The notes beneath the pieces are model-generated. The model saw only the letters and a list, made by a program, of their open reading frames with translations, searched no databases and was not told the DNA's origin. DNA of 63,250 bases, counting the filler, from Squatina squatina (lineage: Eukaryota), in the NCBI GenBank assembly GCA_031763465.1. It is 3 parts of 3 records of this genome, joined end to end, with 100 filler letters (N's around TTAATTAATTAA, not from the genome) between each part and the next. Parts side by side here need not be neighbours in the genome. Positions count along the whole stretch, not along the records: positions 33,069 to 63,250 come from JARFOE010000162.1; 2 more parts are not named here. One strand, given 5' to 3'. Of the stretch, positions 19,094 through 45,730 are shown piece after piece (positions within the stretch are counted from its first letter, which is position 1; every line of letters starts with the position of its first letter). The position numbers were made by a program, and so were the translations under genes.

Positions 19094-19985
19094 TCTATTC
19101 ACACTCTCTCTCTCTCTCCTGACTGACTTCTACAACGTCATGACGTCGATTTCCTTGTGTTGACATAAGCACGCCACACACACACACACAGACACACACT
19201 CACAGACACACACTATCTGAAAGGTGCATTCACCAATAATAACCTTGTCTGTAACACCTCCCACATGAAAATAATTTGTTTCCCAAAAAAATCAACCGCG
19301 CATACAGTTAGTAATGTTAGTAATTCTCACTCCACATAAATACAGAATATCAGATCAGTACAGATACATGCTTCCCATTTAACATCAGGAAAGGCAATCA
19401 GCAATTACGTTATTTTTGCCTCTAATGTGAGTTATCATGAGGTCAAATTCTTGCAAAGTGAAGCTCCAATTTAACAACATTCTGTTCTTGTTTTTCACTC
19501 GGCTTAGAAACACCAACGGGTTATGATCTGTAAACACAGTCAATGGTTTATTAGCCGTGCAATCATATGCACTGAAATGCTGCAAGGCGAATACAAGTGA
19601 CAGCAATTCTTTCTCTATGGTGGAGTAATTCTTTTGATGCTCTAAATTTGTTTGAAAAGTAAGCTGCAGGAAAGTCCATATCATCAAGGTCGCCCTTCTG
19701 CAACAACGCAGCTCCTGCAGCTTCATCACTCGCATCTACTGCTAATGAAAATGGCTTTTCAAAGTCAGGTGATTTGAGTACAGGATGGGAGCATAAAACG
19801 GTTTTCAGCTTCTCAAATGCTTCTTGACGAGAATCTGTCCAAACAAACTTCACTCCCTTCCTCAAAAGATTAGTTAGGGGAAGGGCAATATCAGCAAAAT
19901 TTTTACAAAATTTGCGATAGTATCCAACCATTCCCAAAAATCTTCTAACAGTCTTCGTGCCTGTGGGAACAGGGAACTTAGATGT
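19094..19985 (-). mobile_element. Ty3/Gypsy LTR retrotransposon 3' part: RT connection and RNase H, PPT-like tract, start of 3' LTR
   Basis: RRFLGMVGYYRKFCKNF, FSLAVDASD, YSTIEKELL, VFTDHNPL, HIRGKNNVIADCLS, with one frameshift. Minus-strand gtgggagg is followed by TGTTACA starting at 19256. Confidence 0.9.
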
Positions 19986-20592
19986 TGCTAGTCCGTAACA
20001 ATACAAAGAGTGAAGGGTGCGTAGAATGCGCTGCCAGGGGTTGTAGTGGGGTAAATCCGATAGAGGCGTTAAATAAGCACAGAGGTTGTCTGACGCAATT
20101 CATTTTCAAGAGTCTACTGAAGCAGAAGTACCACATGTTTCAAGCAGTACTGATCAGCAATTGTACTTGATTTACTACGGTGCAACAGTTACTAGGGCAA
20201 AGCACTTTTTGCCTTATTTGTTGCACCAATAGATACTAACTGGAGCACGGCTCTTAGTAGGGAAACCTATAAAGCACAGCGACTTTCTGAAAGATTTAAT
20301 GAATCTTTCAGAATTAATAGTCACATAACCACCCTCATCACTCAGATAAAATCAAACTTTCCTGTCACTGGTTTGTCTATTAGAATTATTCCAAAGAATA
20401 GCTTGCACCAATTTGGAACTTAACTATTATTAAAGTCAATGGGAATATATCTGTACCTGGAACAAACTTACTTAGGCAAAATTGAGCAAGTCTTACTCTT
20501 ACACTGAACAGCTCGTGTACATAAAAATTGAATCTGTATAAATCAGAAGGTACAATTCCCCTTATAAATAGCATCTGCACAATCCAACTTAC

Positions 20593-30192: not shown

Positions 30193-30544
30193 CTAAAATA
30201 AAAAAGAAATAAATTGTTAATCGATATCCATGAATCGTTACTGTCATTGCCTATTTAAAAATACTGTACATTATGGAATAGCAGAAAACACAAGTTGAAA
30301 GCAGTGATGTTACCAAATGAATATTTAATGCATTTATATTCAATTGCACTAAGTTATAAAAAAAAGTTTACATACAGCCAGACAAGAGATGTTAAACTGA
30401 GGGCACTGTCTGCATAGTCAGATGAATGGAAAAGATCCCAATGGATTATTTGAAGAAGAGTATGTGTTCTCTGGTATCCTGGTCAATACTTATCTCTCAG
30501 TGCAACTCCCCAAAAACAGATTAACTGACCATTTATCTCACTGC

Positions 30545-30885
30545 TGTTTAATACACCTCAAATTTGGCTGCCCGCAAAAATTCGTCACCATCCTCCGCCT
30601 GCTCCATGATGACGTGCAAGCTGTGATCCTCACCAACAGTTCAACTACAGACCCAATTCAAGTGCAAACTGGGGTCAAGCAAGGCTGTGTCATTGCCACA
30701 CCATTTNNNNNNNNNNNNNNNNNNNNNNNNNNNNNNNNNNNNNNNNNNNNNNNNNNNNNNNNNNNNNNNNNNNNNNNNNNNNNNNNNNNNNNNNNNNNNN
30801 NNNNNNAGGACTATTTAGTCACCTCAGAACCCACAACTCCGGAGTGGAAGCAAGTCATCCTCGACCCGAGGGACTGCCTAAGAGA
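30545..30885 (+). mobile_element. RTE-clade LINE fragments (RT segment and 3' end) on either side of a gap
   Basis: LKFGCPQKFVTILRLLHDDVQA...VQTGVKQGCVIA is an RTE RT motif. gtggaagcaagtcatcctcgacccgagggactgcctaag resembles an RTE 3' terminus. Confidence 0.8.
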
Positions 30886-30892
30886 AAAGAAG

Positions 30893-31035
30893 TTTGTGGG
30901 ACCTTGTGTGCAAATTGACTGCCATGTTTGCTTACATGACAGTGACTACATTTCAAAAGTAGTTCACTGGCTGTGAAGTGCTTTATAAGGTCTTGAAGAA
31001 ACACAAGGTGCTATATAAATGCAAGTTCTTTTCTT
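30893..31035 (+). mobile_element. Deu-type SINE 3' part
   Basis: gggaccttgtgtgcaaattgactgcc...ctgtgaagtgcttt...aaggtgctatataaatgcaagttctttt is the reverse complement of the family at 10649 and 56254. Confidence 0.7.
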
Positions 31036-36171: not shown

Positions 36172-36299
36172 ATGGCCGTGGTCATCCGCTTGCAGGGTCT
36201 CCCCATTGTGGCGGGGACCATGGATATCCGCCATTTCTTCTCTGGATTAACCATTCCTGATGGTGGCGTGCATATTGTAGGTGGTGAACTTGGTGAGGC
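36172..36299 (+). CDS. RBM12: RBM12 coding start (first part of RRM1); frame breaks off at 36299
   Basis: Acceptor tttttcgtctgcag ends at 36146; MAVVIRLQGLPIVAGTMDIRHFFSGLTIPDGGVHIVGGELGEA is the RBM12 N-terminus. Confidence 0.93.
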
Positions 36300-38061
36300 C
36301 TCAACCTTCATACAGTTGATACTCTCACCTCACAGCACATAAGAATAAAATGAAATGGTCACACTTGTTTAACGGGCACTGTTCTACGGTACGTTGCTGT
36401 GACTGAAGATGCAGAGTGGAGTCTGTTGAACCTGACCCATTCAACACATGACTTGGTCTTTTCTGTGTTTAGGTGAGGAGTGGTATTTCTGAGAAATGTG
36501 GTTTCACATCTTGATGAATATAATTACACATTTGTAAAAGTGAAATAGTTACAGTGCTAATAATTAGGGTTAATGTCCAATATTTTTGCTTAAGGATTGA
36601 GTGATGAGAAATCATGACTCTGGTAAATGTGCTAATATATTTTGCATTCGCTAAATTCAGACAGTGTGGTAATGGTACCATTGACCTAGGGCTAGGCAGG
36701 AAAAATCATTTCCCAGGCCCGATGACTACCCAACAATTGTTACTCAAAGTAAAGGTGTCTAGATGTTGAGTAACGACAATAACAGCATTTGACAGCTTCT
36801 GTAGGCAAATAATCTGCTGGCATTCACTGTTGAAGTTCACTTGTGAAAAGGTACAGGAGGGTAATAGCACCTGTGGAACTGCACACCCTGGTAAAGGTTA
36901 GCACTTCAGCAAATGAGGGAAGAAAACTGAGGTGGGAGGGGTGGAGAGGAGAGGGAAATAGGGGGAGCTCATTAATGACCTTAAAAGTTCATCAAATAAT
37001 AATTCCTTTTAAAAAAAGTGACTGACTGACGCACGATAATGACAAATTTAATGAAGACATCCATCATCAGCTACAATCGAAGGTCAATATCAGTCTTCAA
37101 CCTTAAATCAAGGTAATTTTTCACAAGATGAAATGTATTGACTTTCTGACTTGTCTGAGCCTCTAGTTAAAGCCTGCTGATGTCACCTGGATTCAATCAG
37201 TTGTGACACTTGTAGTCACTGAGCATTTGGACATTTCAATCTGAAGTTGACTAGTGTGAGCAAACATTTCAGAATTCAGTTAGTTTGCAACTTGCCTCTA
37301 GTAACATCACGTCTTAAGTGCACTTTGTTTGTACAATTAAAACTTTCCTTTAGTCATTTCACAATTGTACAGCGGGTTTAAAAAGGGCAATGGAAGAGGG
37401 ACAGGTTTAGGAAGTGAGTACCAGAGAGCAGACTCAGTTGAAGACTGCTATCAACAATAGGGGTGAAAGGAGTGCGGGAGCGGGGGGTGGGGAAGAGAAA
37501 GTAGATCAAATCAGAGAAGTGGAATATTTGGGAAGGAATAGTGGGTTGGAGAAGGTTGAAGGGATAGGATGAACCAAGATCATGGAGGCTAGGGATTTTG
37601 AGTTTAACACATGATCGTGGGGGTGGGAGGTGGAGGGGCATGAATGTCTAATTCTAACATTTGGACTCATACATAAAAAACATTAGCTAAGACACAGTTA
37701 TGGATGTGAATGTTTTGTTTAAAAAGCATAAAATATAAGAATCTATACATAGTCAAATGGCACACAGAATAAGTGGTAGTTGATCATGGCCAGCCAATTC
37801 CTTGAGTTTTCAGCTCTCACATCATGATGCTGTGCAAAAACTATTACAGCAATAAATTAACTCAATTTAGGAATAGCTTTATTTCTGTAATACCGTATAA
37901 TCACAGTAACATTAACACACTTCAATTCTGCTTGCCATATCGTATTGTCCCCCCTCCTTAGNNNNNNNNNNNNNNNNNNNNNNNNNNNNNNNNNNNNNNN
38001 NNNNNNNNNNNNNNNNNNNNNNNNNNNNNNNNNNNNNNNNNNNNNNNNNNNNNNNNNNNNN

Positions 38062-40462
38062 TGAACTTGGTGAGGCTGTCATCGTTTTCTCCACAGATGA
38101 AGATGCACGGCTTGGTATGATGCGTGGTGGGGGTACAATTAAAGGATCCAAAGTATCACTCCTACTGAGTAGTAAAACTGAAATGCAAAATATGATTGAG
38201 CTCAGTCGTAGGCGTTTTGAAACTGGTAATGTGGATATGCCACCAGTGGGCTCAAGCAGGCCAGGGCCACCTAGTAATGCTGGTATGAGTGGAAGGGGTA
38301 ATTTGCCTACGACTATGCCTAATCTAAACACTCCCACTATGGTTACTACAGCTTCCTCGTTGCATGAAGGCATGGGGAACAAGAATGTGCCCACCTTTTC
38401 TGCTGCCAGCATGGGAAGCACACCCTCGAGCCTCAATCCCACTTTTAGCAGCCCTGGGTTTAGCATGGGTTCGACTATGGCCAGCACCATGCCACCATTG
38501 AATACAATAAACTCCGTACCACCACTGCCACCACTTCCTCCTTTACCTACAATGCCATCACTGCCGCCTATGCCTTCAATTCCTCCAATTGGTATTTTGT
38601 CAACATTGCCACCAGTGCCTCCCCTTCCTCCGATAGCACCTCTTGCTCCTATTCCCCCAATGCCACCTATACCTCCTATGCCAAGCTTGCCACCCATGCC
38701 TATGAATGCAGGTAGCACTCTTCCTCTAGGAAGCTCTGGACCCAGTGGAATGAATGGCTCTGGGACTGCGTTGGGCATGAGTAGTAGCCTAAGTTCCATG
38801 TACATGGGTCCCATGGGTTCGTTGAACCCCATGCACCCCATGAATTCCCATAGTTCAATGACTAAAGGACCACCACCAATTAATCCAGATGATCTGTATG
38901 TCCATGTTTATGGGATGCCATACTCTGCAATGGAATCAGATGTAAGGGATTTTTTTCATGGACTTAGAGTTGATGCGGTGCACATGATGAAAGATCATTT
39001 GGGGCGCAATAACAGAGATGCGATGGTGAAGTTTTATGGTCCCTCAGACACTTTCGAAGCTCTGAAACGACATGGAAAAATGATGATGGGCCAGAGATTT
39101 GCCAATGTGTTCCCTGCAACAGAGAGGCAGTGGATGAATACTACGGCTGGCTTTAATGCACCCAAAAGCATGGGCCCCCCACCAGCTATTGGACATTATG
39201 GACAAAACCTACCTCCATTTCACGCATCTAGGTCTGAATCTCCAAGCAGACGTGAAAGGTCACGATCACGTTCTCCTCATGAGAAGGAGTTCTGTGTCTA
39301 TTTGAAANNNNNNNNNNNNNNNNNNNNNNNNNNNNNNNNNNNNNNNNNNNNNNNNNNNNNNNNNNNNNNNNNNNNNNNNNNNNNNNNNNNNNNNNNNNNN
39401 NNNNNNNNNNNNNNNNNNNNNNNNNNNNNNNNNNNNNNNNNNNNNNNNNNNNNNNNNNNNNNNNNNNNNNNNNNNNNNNNNNNNNNNNNNNNNNNNNNNN
39501 NNNNNNNNNNNNNNNNNNNNNNNNNNNNNNNNNNNNNNNNNNNNNNNNNNNNNNNNNNNNNNNNNNNNNNNNNNNNNNNNNNNNNNCAGAAGAGAGAAGT
39601 AACCATGAAAACTGAGGAAGTGTGTGGTTCACCAAAAATTTGTGGTCACATATGGAATATTCCTTACAATGTAACCAAAAGTGACGTGTTCCAGTTTTTG
39701 GAAGGTATTGGACTAGCAGAAAATGGTGTCCAGATTCTTGCTGACTGTAATGGTCAAGGGCTGGGACAAGCACTGGTGCACTTCCTAACTGAAGAGGAAG
39801 CACAGAAAGCTGAGCGACTGCATCGCAAGAAATTAAACGGACGCAATGCATTTCTCCAACTAATCACTCTTGAGCAAAAGCAAGACATGGAGATAAATCC
39901 ACCATTTCAAGCCAAAGGTCAAAAGAATCCAAACCAAGGGAGTCTTGATCCTCCTTTCCTTACGTGTGTTGGAGGAGACAGCATTTTTTCTCCGGGTGGC
40001 AGTTCAGGTAATCTTAATGGCCCTGTACCACCATTCAACCCAGTCAGTAGCTTTAGTGGATCAAGTAATATGTTTGGAGCCAGTCCAGGTCCTGGATCTG
40101 GGCTCAGTGGTAGTATTGGCGATGGTCCAGTGGGAGGGCCTGTTTTTGGAAGCAGCAGTATAGGTAGTTTCCCAGGATCAGGGGTTGAGCCAAGCTTTGG
40201 AGGTGGTCCTTTAAATACCAACAGCCCAACAGTGGTTAAAGTTCAGAATTTGCCCTTCAAAGTATCTGTGGATGAAATCTTGGATTTCTTTTATGGCTAC
40301 CGTGTGATTCCCGACTCTGTGTGCCTGCAGTTCAATGAACAAGGTATGCCTACAGGTGAAGCAATGGTTGCTTTCGAGTCCTGCGATGAAGCAATGTCAG
40401 CTGTGGTTGACCTCAGTGATAGACCAATGGGATCGAGGAAAGTTAAGCTAGTCTTGGGATAA
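38062..40462 (+). CDS. RBM12: RBM12 main coding region (RRMs plus Pro-rich region), containing a 279-N in-frame gap
   Basis: ELGEAVIVFSTDEDARLGMMRGGGTIKGSKVSLLLSSKTEMQNMIELSRRRFET ... PINPDDLYV ... VVKVQNLPFKVSVDEILDFFYGY ... GSRKVKLVLG*. Confidence 0.96.
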
Positions 40463-43400: not shown

Positions 43401-44768
43401 NAAAAAGGCAAAGAGTAACTCATTATCTGACTTGTCCAAATTGCTTGTGTCTGATTTACTTTGCCTACTCATTGCCGTATTGACATTGCCATAAGGACAC
43501 TGGTGTGCTACCTCTTAACATTGTGCTGACCACTTTGCATATACAGTTTGGAATATGCTGTGTTTTCCTTCAGTGAATCAATAGGCATTCTGTGCACCAA
43601 ATACAATTTGATGGCTTCAGTGCTGAAGTTTAACATGAACATTCATTTACCAGTGGTCCTATGCATTTATATATGTGGAATATATATATATATAGTACAA
43701 CTCCCAAAAATGCATTGCTTGCATAGTGGCAAGTTATATGCTTTGCAGAGAATGTGTACTGATGTTGATCATCTGCAGAATGGGCATCAGTTTTAAATAT
43801 AATTGCAAATATGCTTATATATTTCTCCAAACTTATTCCATCTTTCTCTTCCCAACTTAACTGTTAATGTTGACACAGAAAGGCATCCCCATTTCACAAA
43901 TTGGGGTAATCTTGTAAAAGTTGCTTCCTTTTTTTTTAATGATCCAGCACTGGCTCTGTTGATTTTCTTTATTTTCAAAAATGTCTGACGATGGTGATTT
44001 TCATTTAAGAGATACGATCTTGTGAAACGTTTTTTTTATATTTTGGGGAAAACTCCATCTACGAGACATTTTACAACACTTGTACCATCTGATTATTGAT
44101 TTATGCTCTTGATTGGTGAACCATTTTGCAATTACCTCTTCAGTAAAAGTATCACGAGTGAACGAGCCGATGAATTTTGAATGTAATGCAGTAACTCGTT
44201 CGGAGCCATGGGACCTGCAGGAATGTACCAAGTTAATCAAAAGGTCCGTACACTGCAAACTTAAAGGCTAATATTTGTATGGAGAACGCTGCTGAAGAGT
44301 GTGAATGTATCTGCTCTGAATATCTGAATGATGCTCCATTTCATTTACGTGCCGCTGTTAGTTGGTGCCAGCACTGCCATCAGTGTTGCCAATTTTGGCT
44401 TAGACCTGGCTGCCATCTGCAGTTCCTGCTGTCTTCGTTGCTGTATAAGTGCTGAGATCAGACTTGTAAAGTCATTGTGATGACGTCAACTGGGAACAGG
44501 TAGGTTGACAGATGTGTTTGGGAAGGNNNNNNNNNNNNNNNNNNNNNNNNNNNNNNNNNNNNNNNNNNNNNNNNNNNNNNNNNNNNNNNNNNNNNNNNNN
44601 NNNNNNNNNNNNNNNNNNNNNNNNNNCCCGAGGACGGGGGCGACGGGGCGGGCTTTACCCCCTCCCCGTCGCGGCTCGGCGCCTTAAGCTCTGGGGTCCT
44701 CAGGAGCATTGTCGCTGCTGACTCTTGGCTCCAGTTTCTGTGCTCACTTGGTGTTTGTTTGCTGTCAG

Positions 44769-44864
44769 GTGGCTGTTAACGATATGGATGAAAGCACAAG
44801 CTCCGATTTGATAGGGGAGTTCACTGTTCCCATTAAGGAGCTGTTGGAAGCAAAGGACCAAGTG
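44769..44864 (+). CDS. CPNE1: Copine C2B-domain exon, variant A (96 nt, phase 0/0)
   Basis: tttgctgtcag / gtgagc boundaries; VAVNDMDESTSSDLIGEFTVPIKELLEAKDQV aligns with the neighbouring exon. CPNE1 assigned from its position next to RBM12. Confidence 0.8.
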
Positions 44865-44912
44865 GTGAGCCCCTCTCTAACTCTTCCTATTGGCTGCCCT
44901 CTTTCCCTGTAG

Positions 44913-45011
44913 GTCACCTGCTCTGACTATGATGGTGACGGCTCACATGATCTGATAGGACTTTTTGAAACTAACTTCTCTAAACTGCAGCAAGTGGAAG
45001 CTGGGACTCCG
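44913..45011 (+). CDS. CPNE1: Copine C2B-domain exon, variant B (99 nt, phase 0/0)
   Basis: ctttccctgtag / gtgaga boundaries; [33 protein letters not shown] contains the copine [12 protein letters not shown] motif. Confidence 0.92.
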
Positions 45012-45730
45012 GTGAGAATCGTTATTTCTCTCTCGAATCTTTACAGGTGGCTTGTGCTTTTTTATTTAAAACCCATCTTCCACAATAACACTGCAGACCC
45101 CATGAAGTGCTGAAGTGTTTGCAGTTATTGAATTGTGAAATTAGGCACTGCACTTCCTGTAAATGTATAATTATTTGTTGTATTCTTTTTCTGTCTTTCC
45201 TCTTCTCTCCCTGTGCCCTCGCTCTTCTCTCCCTCTGCTGGCTGTTGTGAAAATGCGGTTGGGGTAGCTGTTAGTGGGCACAGGCCCCCAGCACAGAACT
45301 GCAGTTTGGCACTGGGATTGGGAGGGATGGGGTTTAGGGTCTCCATCAAAGGGGCAATATTGGGGAAACCGAGAAGGAAAACTAAAATCACACTGGGGCT
45401 GCCAGGGTAATAGCTGGTTTTGTGAGCTCGGCTTTTAAGGCACATTATTGCGGCAGATTAGATCCAGACCAGAAACGGGCCCCTCGGTCCATCGTACAAC
45501 ACAGAAGGAGGCCATTCGGCCATTGTGCCTGTGCCAGAAATTCTGTTTGAAAAACTCTACTACAGATCTCTGTAACATCCCTCTGTACCTCCATAATTTG
45601 TTTTGTATTTTTCTCCTTGTTTATCATTCAGATCCCTCTGTTTGGGTCCATCATTAGGAAGCCTGAGAAGGAACCAGCTGACAAACTTACACTGTATCAA
45701 GACTCTGACGGTGCCAATGTAGAAAGACAT

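Follow-up and report, generated by a model that had tools for sequence, protein, structure and literature searches.

Exons A and B, two adjacent exons of the copine gene CPNE1 in the shark Squatina squatina, are a genuine and ancient pair of exons that are probably mutually exclusive. Our preferred explanation, which we consider probable when taken as a whole, is that the pair is a conserved alternative in which joining of A to B is likely blocked sterically, and in which the swap is predicted to replace a two-Ca2+ form of the C2B domain (B) with a form that has a third site (A).

Two homologous C2B exons lie 48 nt apart

The pair lies in a window of 63,250 nt (the whole stretch of DNA analysed), which contains 45 N runs with 6,118 N in total. 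Exon A, the spacer and exon B fall within one N-free stretch of 1.9 kb, and the coordinates, lengths and translations that the original prediction gave for all three were exact. The features are:

44700..44768, plus strand: exon A acceptor region; a motif scan alone gives branch-point-like motifs at 48 and 23 nt upstream of A
44769..44864, plus strand: CPNE1 exon A, alternative C2B segment with Ca2+-binding loop 3 (96 nt, 32 residues, phase 0-0)
44865..44912, plus strand: intron between A and B (48 nt, GT...AG, pyrimidine-rich, with a terminal in-frame TAG)
44877..44881, plus strand: CTAAC as predicted branch-point motif, its branch A (44880) lying 16 nt from the A donor
44913..45011, plus strand: CPNE1 exon B, ancestral-type C2B loop-3 segment (99 nt, 33 residues, phase 0-0)

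Inspection of the sequence revealed CAG just before exon A and GTGAGC just after it, GTGAGA directly downstream of exon B, and a spacer that runs from GT to TAG. The two exons are adjacent, homologous, similar in length (96 and 99 nt) and equal in phase (0-0). Ten of 29 residues are common to both, and shuffling matched their local alignment score in 3 of 10,000 trials. Both contain D-x-D-x5-D, the aspartate pattern that they had been predicted to retain. Neither A alone nor B alone gives a match in Pfam. Exon A shows 79-85% identity to "copine-1 isoform X2" in two other sharks, and exon B shows 81-91% identity to the copine-1 models of sharks and rays. A second in-frame donor is present 3 nt before the end of exon A; the 32-residue A segments in the models of other sharks agree with the donor at 44864.

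It had been argued that, because both exons preserve the reading frame, nonsense-mediated decay (NMD) cannot enforce exclusivity. This stands for RNA in which A is joined to B. However, translation of the spacer in frame after A stops at the TAG of the B acceptor, so that spacer-retained RNA in S. squatina would carry a premature stop and could be cleared by NMD.

The gene is CPNE1 and adjoins RBM12

The exons had been described as copine C2B exons, which they are, and the gene can now be specified as CPNE1 from its best matches and its upstream neighbor. The proteins closest to A and to B are shark and ray "copine-1" models, and in our trees B clusters with CPNE1 B exons (support 95/97). Both Heptranchias forms contain two C2 domains and a Copine domain above the cut-off, and the A/B swap covers residues 212-243/244 of Heptranchias copine-1. 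An open reading frame (ORF) for a protein with an RRM lies 4.3 kb upstream of the pair on the same strand:

36172..40462, plus strand: RBM12 coding region (ORF; RRM_1, E 6e-16; interrupted in the assembly)

We take this ORF to be RBM12. Since CPNE1 and RBM12 are described as paired at one locus (extracts of PMC2568002), the presence of RBM12 upstream identifies the copine as CPNE1. Three squamate copine-1 models (P0160, P0169 and P0171) carry RBM12 names because this locus is common to both genes. A tblastn search of the window, which is gappy, found no copine exon besides A and B, and a 17-nt motif of the upstream copine exon was absent from the window.

The RBM12 frame (window 36172-38090) breaks after ~43 codons and resumes ~1.77 kb on, across an N run, and the interruption is flanked by identical 15 bases at both ends. 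It could be either mis-scaffolding or an insertion with target-site duplication. Elsewhere in the window, a coding stretch rich in lysine and glutamate occurs on the minus strand at ~23.7-23.8 kb, which we take to be the beginning of lysyl-tRNA synthetase (KARS1). Reverse-transcriptase-like fragments occur at 19563-20099 (minus strand), 30401-30976 (plus strand) and ~7.5-7.9 kb (minus strand); these resemble LTR-retrotransposon and LINE sequence.

Exon A is conserved across jawed vertebrates

Searching with a profile built from the A segments of eight shark and ray proteins gave 477 matches, of which 120 were listed, and cluster look-ups added more. The 180 named proteins comprised 75 with A only, 93 with only a B-type loop (CPNE2 and CPNE3 among them) and 12 with both. 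Taking one A protein per species and removing 7 duplicates or unnamed rows left 68 species. Thus, A-only models exist in at least 68 species (18 elasmobranchs, 18 teleosts, the coelacanth, 18 amphibians, 12 reptiles and 1 bird), and at least 19 species have both A-only and B-only models. The Xenopus proteins NP_001083652.1/AAH61671.1, NP_001085407.1 and NP_001027494.1 are all of the A form, and one is tied to a BC-series cDNA protein; accessions of the NP_ and BC types derive from cDNA.

Phylogenetic analysis placed the A exons in one clade (99/97), separate from B. The B exons clustered with CPNE3 and with one protein outside the named set, which we take to be mammalian CPNE1. Since A forms a clade apart from B, while B groups with CPNE3, the pair is, judging from these trees, at least as old as jawed vertebrates. 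Absence of conservation had been named as an outcome that would count against the idea; instead, A is found across jawed vertebrates and is included in transcripts of relatives. The other outcomes named as refuting were likewise not encountered.

Some lineages have probably not kept exon A. Neither a mammalian CPNE1 A exon nor a percomorph A exon was found among the 120 listed of the 477 matches. Exon A was likely lost in mammals, and there are hints of a separate loss in percomorphs. The named teleost A exons among these 120 matches are all otocephalan or salmonid. The sole bird A exon among the matches listed, in quail copine-1 isoform X4 (P0091), has lost the position-10 Ser/Thr and is the one exception to a Gly16 that is otherwise invariant in A exons, which suggests decay of exon A in birds. 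In addition, the loops of three copines (P0184, P0194 and P0225) resemble that of A, with Glu8 and Ser10. P0184 adjoins vertebrate A in one tree, a placement flagged as a possible long-branch join.

Exons A and B are probably used one at a time

We searched 14.4 million records of the S. squatina RNA run X2 against a 420-nt stretch containing the pair. Ten reads fell on the stretch, all on B, and nine of these were at least 99% alike. In 7 of the 10, the upstream copine exon (C-N-G-D-M-E-K-P-I) lies directly before B; thus, A was skipped in these reads. None of the 10 reads from this one sample covered A, none of the 7 reads entering B came from A, and none covered the interior of the spacer (the terminal AG alone is represented, which is also compatible with the Lys codon of the upstream exon). 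Read depth drops to 0 past 45011. A second run, X1, gave 0 reads on the stretch and, having no control, is not a test. The RNA therefore demonstrates the B form here, and ten reads from one sample are compatible with tissue-restricted use of A. Of the junctions that had been predicted, upstream-B was found (7 reads) and A-B was, as expected, not (0/7); the expected upstream-A junction was absent (0/10 reads).

These reads could also mean that exon A is decaying or unused in S. squatina while functional elsewhere. Besides the lack of reads on A, position 3 of the S. squatina exon is Val instead of the Cys found in most sharks and rays, and the quail copy that lacks Gly16 indicates that decay does occur. 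However, exon A has an open frame and good splice sites, and 25 of 29 residues match those of its Heptranchias counterpart; Val3 is shared by 29 of the 68 species with an A exon, among the matches listed; and the sample is small enough for A to be used in particular tissues. We consider decay in S. squatina very unlikely.

Both forms are recorded in zebrafish. The extracts of supplement file 7 of PMC9534849 contain a mutually exclusive exon (MXE) event for zebrafish cpne1 (rMATS event 513), with exons of 96 and 99 nt, a spacer of 87 nt between them, and flanking exons of 90 and 87 nt, in agreement with the A-form protein of zebrafish. As the inclusion length of 245 equals 149 + 96, the 96-nt exon is the form that was counted. 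According to this row, A inclusion in zebrafish heart was 0.48-0.64 in 8 control libraries (mean 0.54) and averaged 0.46 in 8 rbfox1l/rbfox2 mutant libraries (FDR 0.001), an effect of 0.08 that is under the effect cut-off of that paper (PMC9534849). Reads skipping both exons numbered 0-12 per library (PMC9534849). The main text of that paper does not mention cpne1. Thus, each exon is included alone in zebrafish and in Xenopus (A alone and B alone), and in S. squatina B is included alone at its 5′ junction.

One set of models complicates this picture. In 12 of the 180 named proteins, A is followed by B. By accession, seven of the 12 are models from GenBank submitters. The remaining 5 have submitter, "hypothetical" or UniRef names, and none of the 12 bears a RefSeq "isoform X" name. 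Because of these names, we read the 12 models as probable prediction errors. If they were instead correct, A and B would be neighboring cassette exons that can be included together, which the preservation of frame by each exon would permit. This seems highly improbable, since no read entering B originated from A and no event with A and B as neighbors is present among the 7 zebrafish cpne1 rows listed in PMC9534849 (rMATS does not count A-B junctions directly), and since the both-exon models are without a RefSeq isoform. Exclusivity, as originally predicted, is therefore supported by the zebrafish MXE row and by the use of B without A in S. squatina, while the 12 models stand against it.

A 48-nt intron may enforce the choice

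A distance of less than ~50 nt between donor and branch point is taken to block joining of two exons (extracts of PMC5740500 and PMC7969005). The S. squatina pair is below this distance: since the entire intron is 48 nt, any branch point falls within the steric limit. The CTAAC motif begins at 44877, and the second of its two adenosines (44880) is spacer base 16, 32 nt before the spacer end, exactly as had been claimed. The spacer contains five adenosines only (positions 4, 15, 16, 25 and 47), and its positions 7-46 are 82.5% pyrimidine. Because the usable adenosines (15, 16 and 25) are all at most 25 nt from the A donor, any branch point would also be no farther away than this.

A model that accommodates these data has four steps. 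First, in S. squatina, both exons are intact, and B is spliced onto the upstream exon without A. Second, in relatives, A replaces B, as in the models of at least 68 species, in Xenopus cDNA records, and at approximately equal levels in zebrafish heart. Third, U1 on the A donor and U2 on the B branch point could not both bind less than ~50 nt apart; A would hence never be joined to B, and splicing factors would set the ratio only. Fourth, the A and B forms would differ in their Ca2+ or membrane response. For S. squatina, steric blocking of A-B joining is likely. The original claim of steric enforcement is thus supported in that the intron is below the limit, but it depends on a predicted branch point, and the 87-nt zebrafish spacer could escape.

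Spacer lengths elsewhere vary. In four read-through ORFs (P0220, P0247, P0057 from huchen, and P0286), the spacer is 57, 63, 66 and 72 nt, and the range over six cases (S. squatina, zebrafish and these four) is 48-87 nt, a consistently small size that is in keeping with steric blocking. Since read-through ORFs favor short, stop-free spacers, the four lengths are a biased sample. For the zebrafish spacer to come under the limit, its branch point would have to lie 38 nt or more before the acceptor, and for zebrafish we regard steric blocking as having an even chance of being correct.

Exclusivity could instead be set by RNA-binding proteins, with the short spacer incidental and any A+B protein lost, as two copies of the same strands would not fit one C2 sandwich. 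The zebrafish spacer (87 nt) is about the size of another cpne1 intron (90 nt; table in PMC9534849), A inclusion falls from 0.54 to 0.46 in the rbfox1l/rbfox2 mutants (FDR 0.001), and steric cases make up only 9% of human clusters (extracts of PMC5740500). However, in the 48-nt S. squatina intron, the branch point is necessarily inside the limit, and the Rbfox effect in zebrafish, besides being under the cut-offs of the paper, moves the ratio only. The (T)GCATG element is absent from the 1.9-kb N-free stretch. Thus, control by RNA-binding proteins as the source of exclusivity is unlikely, and we favor steric blocking. In two cyprinid-type read-throughs (P0084 and P0286), the peptide after A is G-M or R-M, which could encode a GCATG Rbfox element, although back-translation is ambiguous; such an element after A would be in line with the slight effect of Rbfox loss seen in zebrafish. 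RNA structure as the mechanism of exclusion was unsupported, as the region 44700-45060 has no unusual fold (z 0.28), which also counts against dependence on RNA-binding proteins.

The swap is predicted to change Ca2+ binding by C2B

C2B is described as the dominant domain in copine membrane binding (extracts of PMC10968396). Loop 3 of synaptotagmin-1 C2A can be aligned to exon A with no gaps, which places Thr10 on the only serine of that loop. In synaptotagmins, this one loop-3 serine decides the number of ions bound: S235 of synaptotagmin-1 C2A and S362 of synaptotagmin-7 C2B provide a third Ca2+ site, whereas synaptotagmin-1 C2B, which lacks the serine, binds two Ca2+ (extracts of PMC2932738). 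The difference in synaptotagmins is between domains or genes; in CPNE1, it would be a splicing switch within one domain.

Among the matches listed, position 10 of exon A is Thr in 47, Ser in 20 and Ala in 1 of the 68 species, and position 8 is acidic in 68/68. Position 10 of exon B is Gly in 27/27 CPNE1 B exons, and Gly occupies this position in 180 of the 189 B-like loops of all fetched proteins. Tyr6 and His12, both present in 27/27 B exons, differ as well: Tyr6 is kept in 1 of the 68 A exons, and His12 is replaced in A. As our segment finder demanded the three Asp of D-x-D-x5-D, the invariance of these Asp is not independent evidence. A three-Ca2+ C2 domain of the synaptotagmin-1 C2A type is marked by five aspartates and a Ser/Thr in loop 3. 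Exon A has the sequence expected of such a domain, namely loop-3 D-x-D-x5-D with Ser/Thr in 67/68, and two loop-1 Asp are visible in P0002. No vertebrate copine was among the structure matches.

From these comparisons, the A and B forms probably differ in Ca2+ or membrane response. That the difference acts through the loop-3 Ser/Thr, with three Ca2+ predicted for the A form and two for the B form, is possible, at somewhat less than even odds. Thus, of the Ca2+-loop switch originally proposed, the part that stands is that the exon carries C2B loop 3, while different Ca2+ or lipid binding by the isoforms continues to be a prediction.

The main rival to the Ca2+ reading is that the two forms are distinguished mainly by their phosphorylation or their protein partners rather than by Ca2+ number, with the acidic, Ser/Thr-rich loop of A serving as a kinase site; the helix that follows is also changed. 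Position 10 of this acid- and Ser/Thr-rich loop fits S/T-x-x-D, the casein-kinase-2-type consensus. The replacement in A of both Tyr6 and His12, and the presence of Asp or Thr rather than a fixed Ser10 in a non-vertebrate A-like exon, are also consistent with this rival. Against it, the single near-invariant A-specific change sits on a known Ca2+ ligand position. We rate it as the less probable explanation, and the two are not mutually exclusive.

A non-vertebrate copine has a similar pair

A pattern scan of metagenome contigs for the B loop gave 14 loci. Six of these (L004, L006, L008, L010, L011 and L012; four distinct sequences, pattern match at 501-535) belong to a non-vertebrate, intron-containing copine in which the same C2B loop-3 exon, with the same boundaries, is present as two 96-nt copies 55-58 nt apart. 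ACTGAT, with a branch-like A at position 19, is invariant in 4/4 distinct spacers, while the preceding bases vary. In one protein (P0209), the first copy is spliced between the flanking exons without the second copy. The other eight loci had no second copy within 500 nt on either side, none of the 14 loci was a vertebrate CPNE1 A-B locus, and a metagenome scan with the read-through alignment gave no match.

The best tree pairs the two non-vertebrate copies together (82/85), and they have 14/30 identities to each other versus 11-12/30 to vertebrate A. Since the copies are closest to each other, an independent duplication in the non-vertebrate lineage is favored by these data. A common origin with vertebrate A was not rejected (p-AU 0.31), and AU tests on 30 columns rejected no origin scenario.

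Combining these observations gives a joint reading that we offer as tentative: A would make a three-Ca2+ C2B and B a two-Ca2+ C2B, the tiny intron would make the choice binary, mammals would have lost A, and a non-vertebrate parallel would have the same tiny intron and early branch point. The non-vertebrate pair in this reading could be either independent or a relic predating vertebrates.

Discussion

Steric exclusion by proximity of donor and branch point is classically known for alpha-tropomyosin exons 2/3 and the alpha-actinin NM/SM exons, which have longer introns with distant branch points. These genes have the exclusion that we propose for CPNE1, but without a C2 domain. The original prediction likened the CPNE1 pair to alpha-tropomyosin; the arrangement differs, as the S. 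squatina intron is itself under the limit, with no distant branch point in a longer intron.

Homologous exclusive exons of the steric type are a known class that is enriched in Ca2+ proteins, including CALU and OGDH. CALU encodes calumenin, an EF-hand protein. Like CPNE1, CALU is a gene for a Ca2+-binding protein with a homologous, mutually exclusive pair of jawed-vertebrate age (extracts of PMC4494069) and a short intervening intron, which is 73 nt in CALU (extracts of PMC7969005). Unlike the CPNE1 pair, which changes a C2 loop, has a 48-nt intron and was apparently lost in mammals, the CALU pair is kept in humans. OGDH exons 4a/4b are likewise an exclusive pair, which alters the Ca2+ response and is enforced by branch points less than 50 nt from the upstream donor (extracts of PMC7969005). 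In OGDH, the branch points are mapped and lie far from the acceptor in a longer intron, and the Ca2+ effect is measured; in CPNE1, the intron is tiny, both the branch point and the effect are predicted, and both exons keep the core aspartates.

The two isoforms are already present in public data as automatic annotations and as a supplement row: "copine-1 isoform X1/X2" and zebrafish rMATS event 513 are the same two splice forms, annotated automatically only. Searches of mostly open-access literature for copine or cpne1 with mutually exclusive, homologous or duplicated exons found no paper on the pair. CPNE is absent from the main texts of PMC4494069 and PMC12946277 and of the human MXE atlas PMC5740500; in the supplement of the atlas, the 5 displayed of 10 matches are all a different exon, of CPNE2. 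No cpne1 MXE row was present in the supplements of PMC9501657 and PMC5703972, nor among the rows listed in the supplements of PMC9770155. PMC6158741 describes Xenopus cpne1 isoforms specific to skin and embryo, but these give no evidence of the A/B switch: one probe primer lies in the first coding exon, and two further primers match neither coding form.

A review describes the effect of alternative splicing on copine function as unclear (extracts of PMC10968396). The A/B pair alters a loop that binds Ca2+ in the very domain responsible for membrane binding. It yields a one-residue prediction that is testable in zebrafish or Xenopus, since these animals make both forms. Studies of zebrafish and Xenopus cpne1 may use an isoform that is apparently missing in mammals; the Xenopus RefSeq NP_ records identified are of the A form. 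At 48 nt, the shark intron offers a clean natural test of the steric mechanism. The non-vertebrate parallel suggests that loop 3 is a repeated target of exon duplication.
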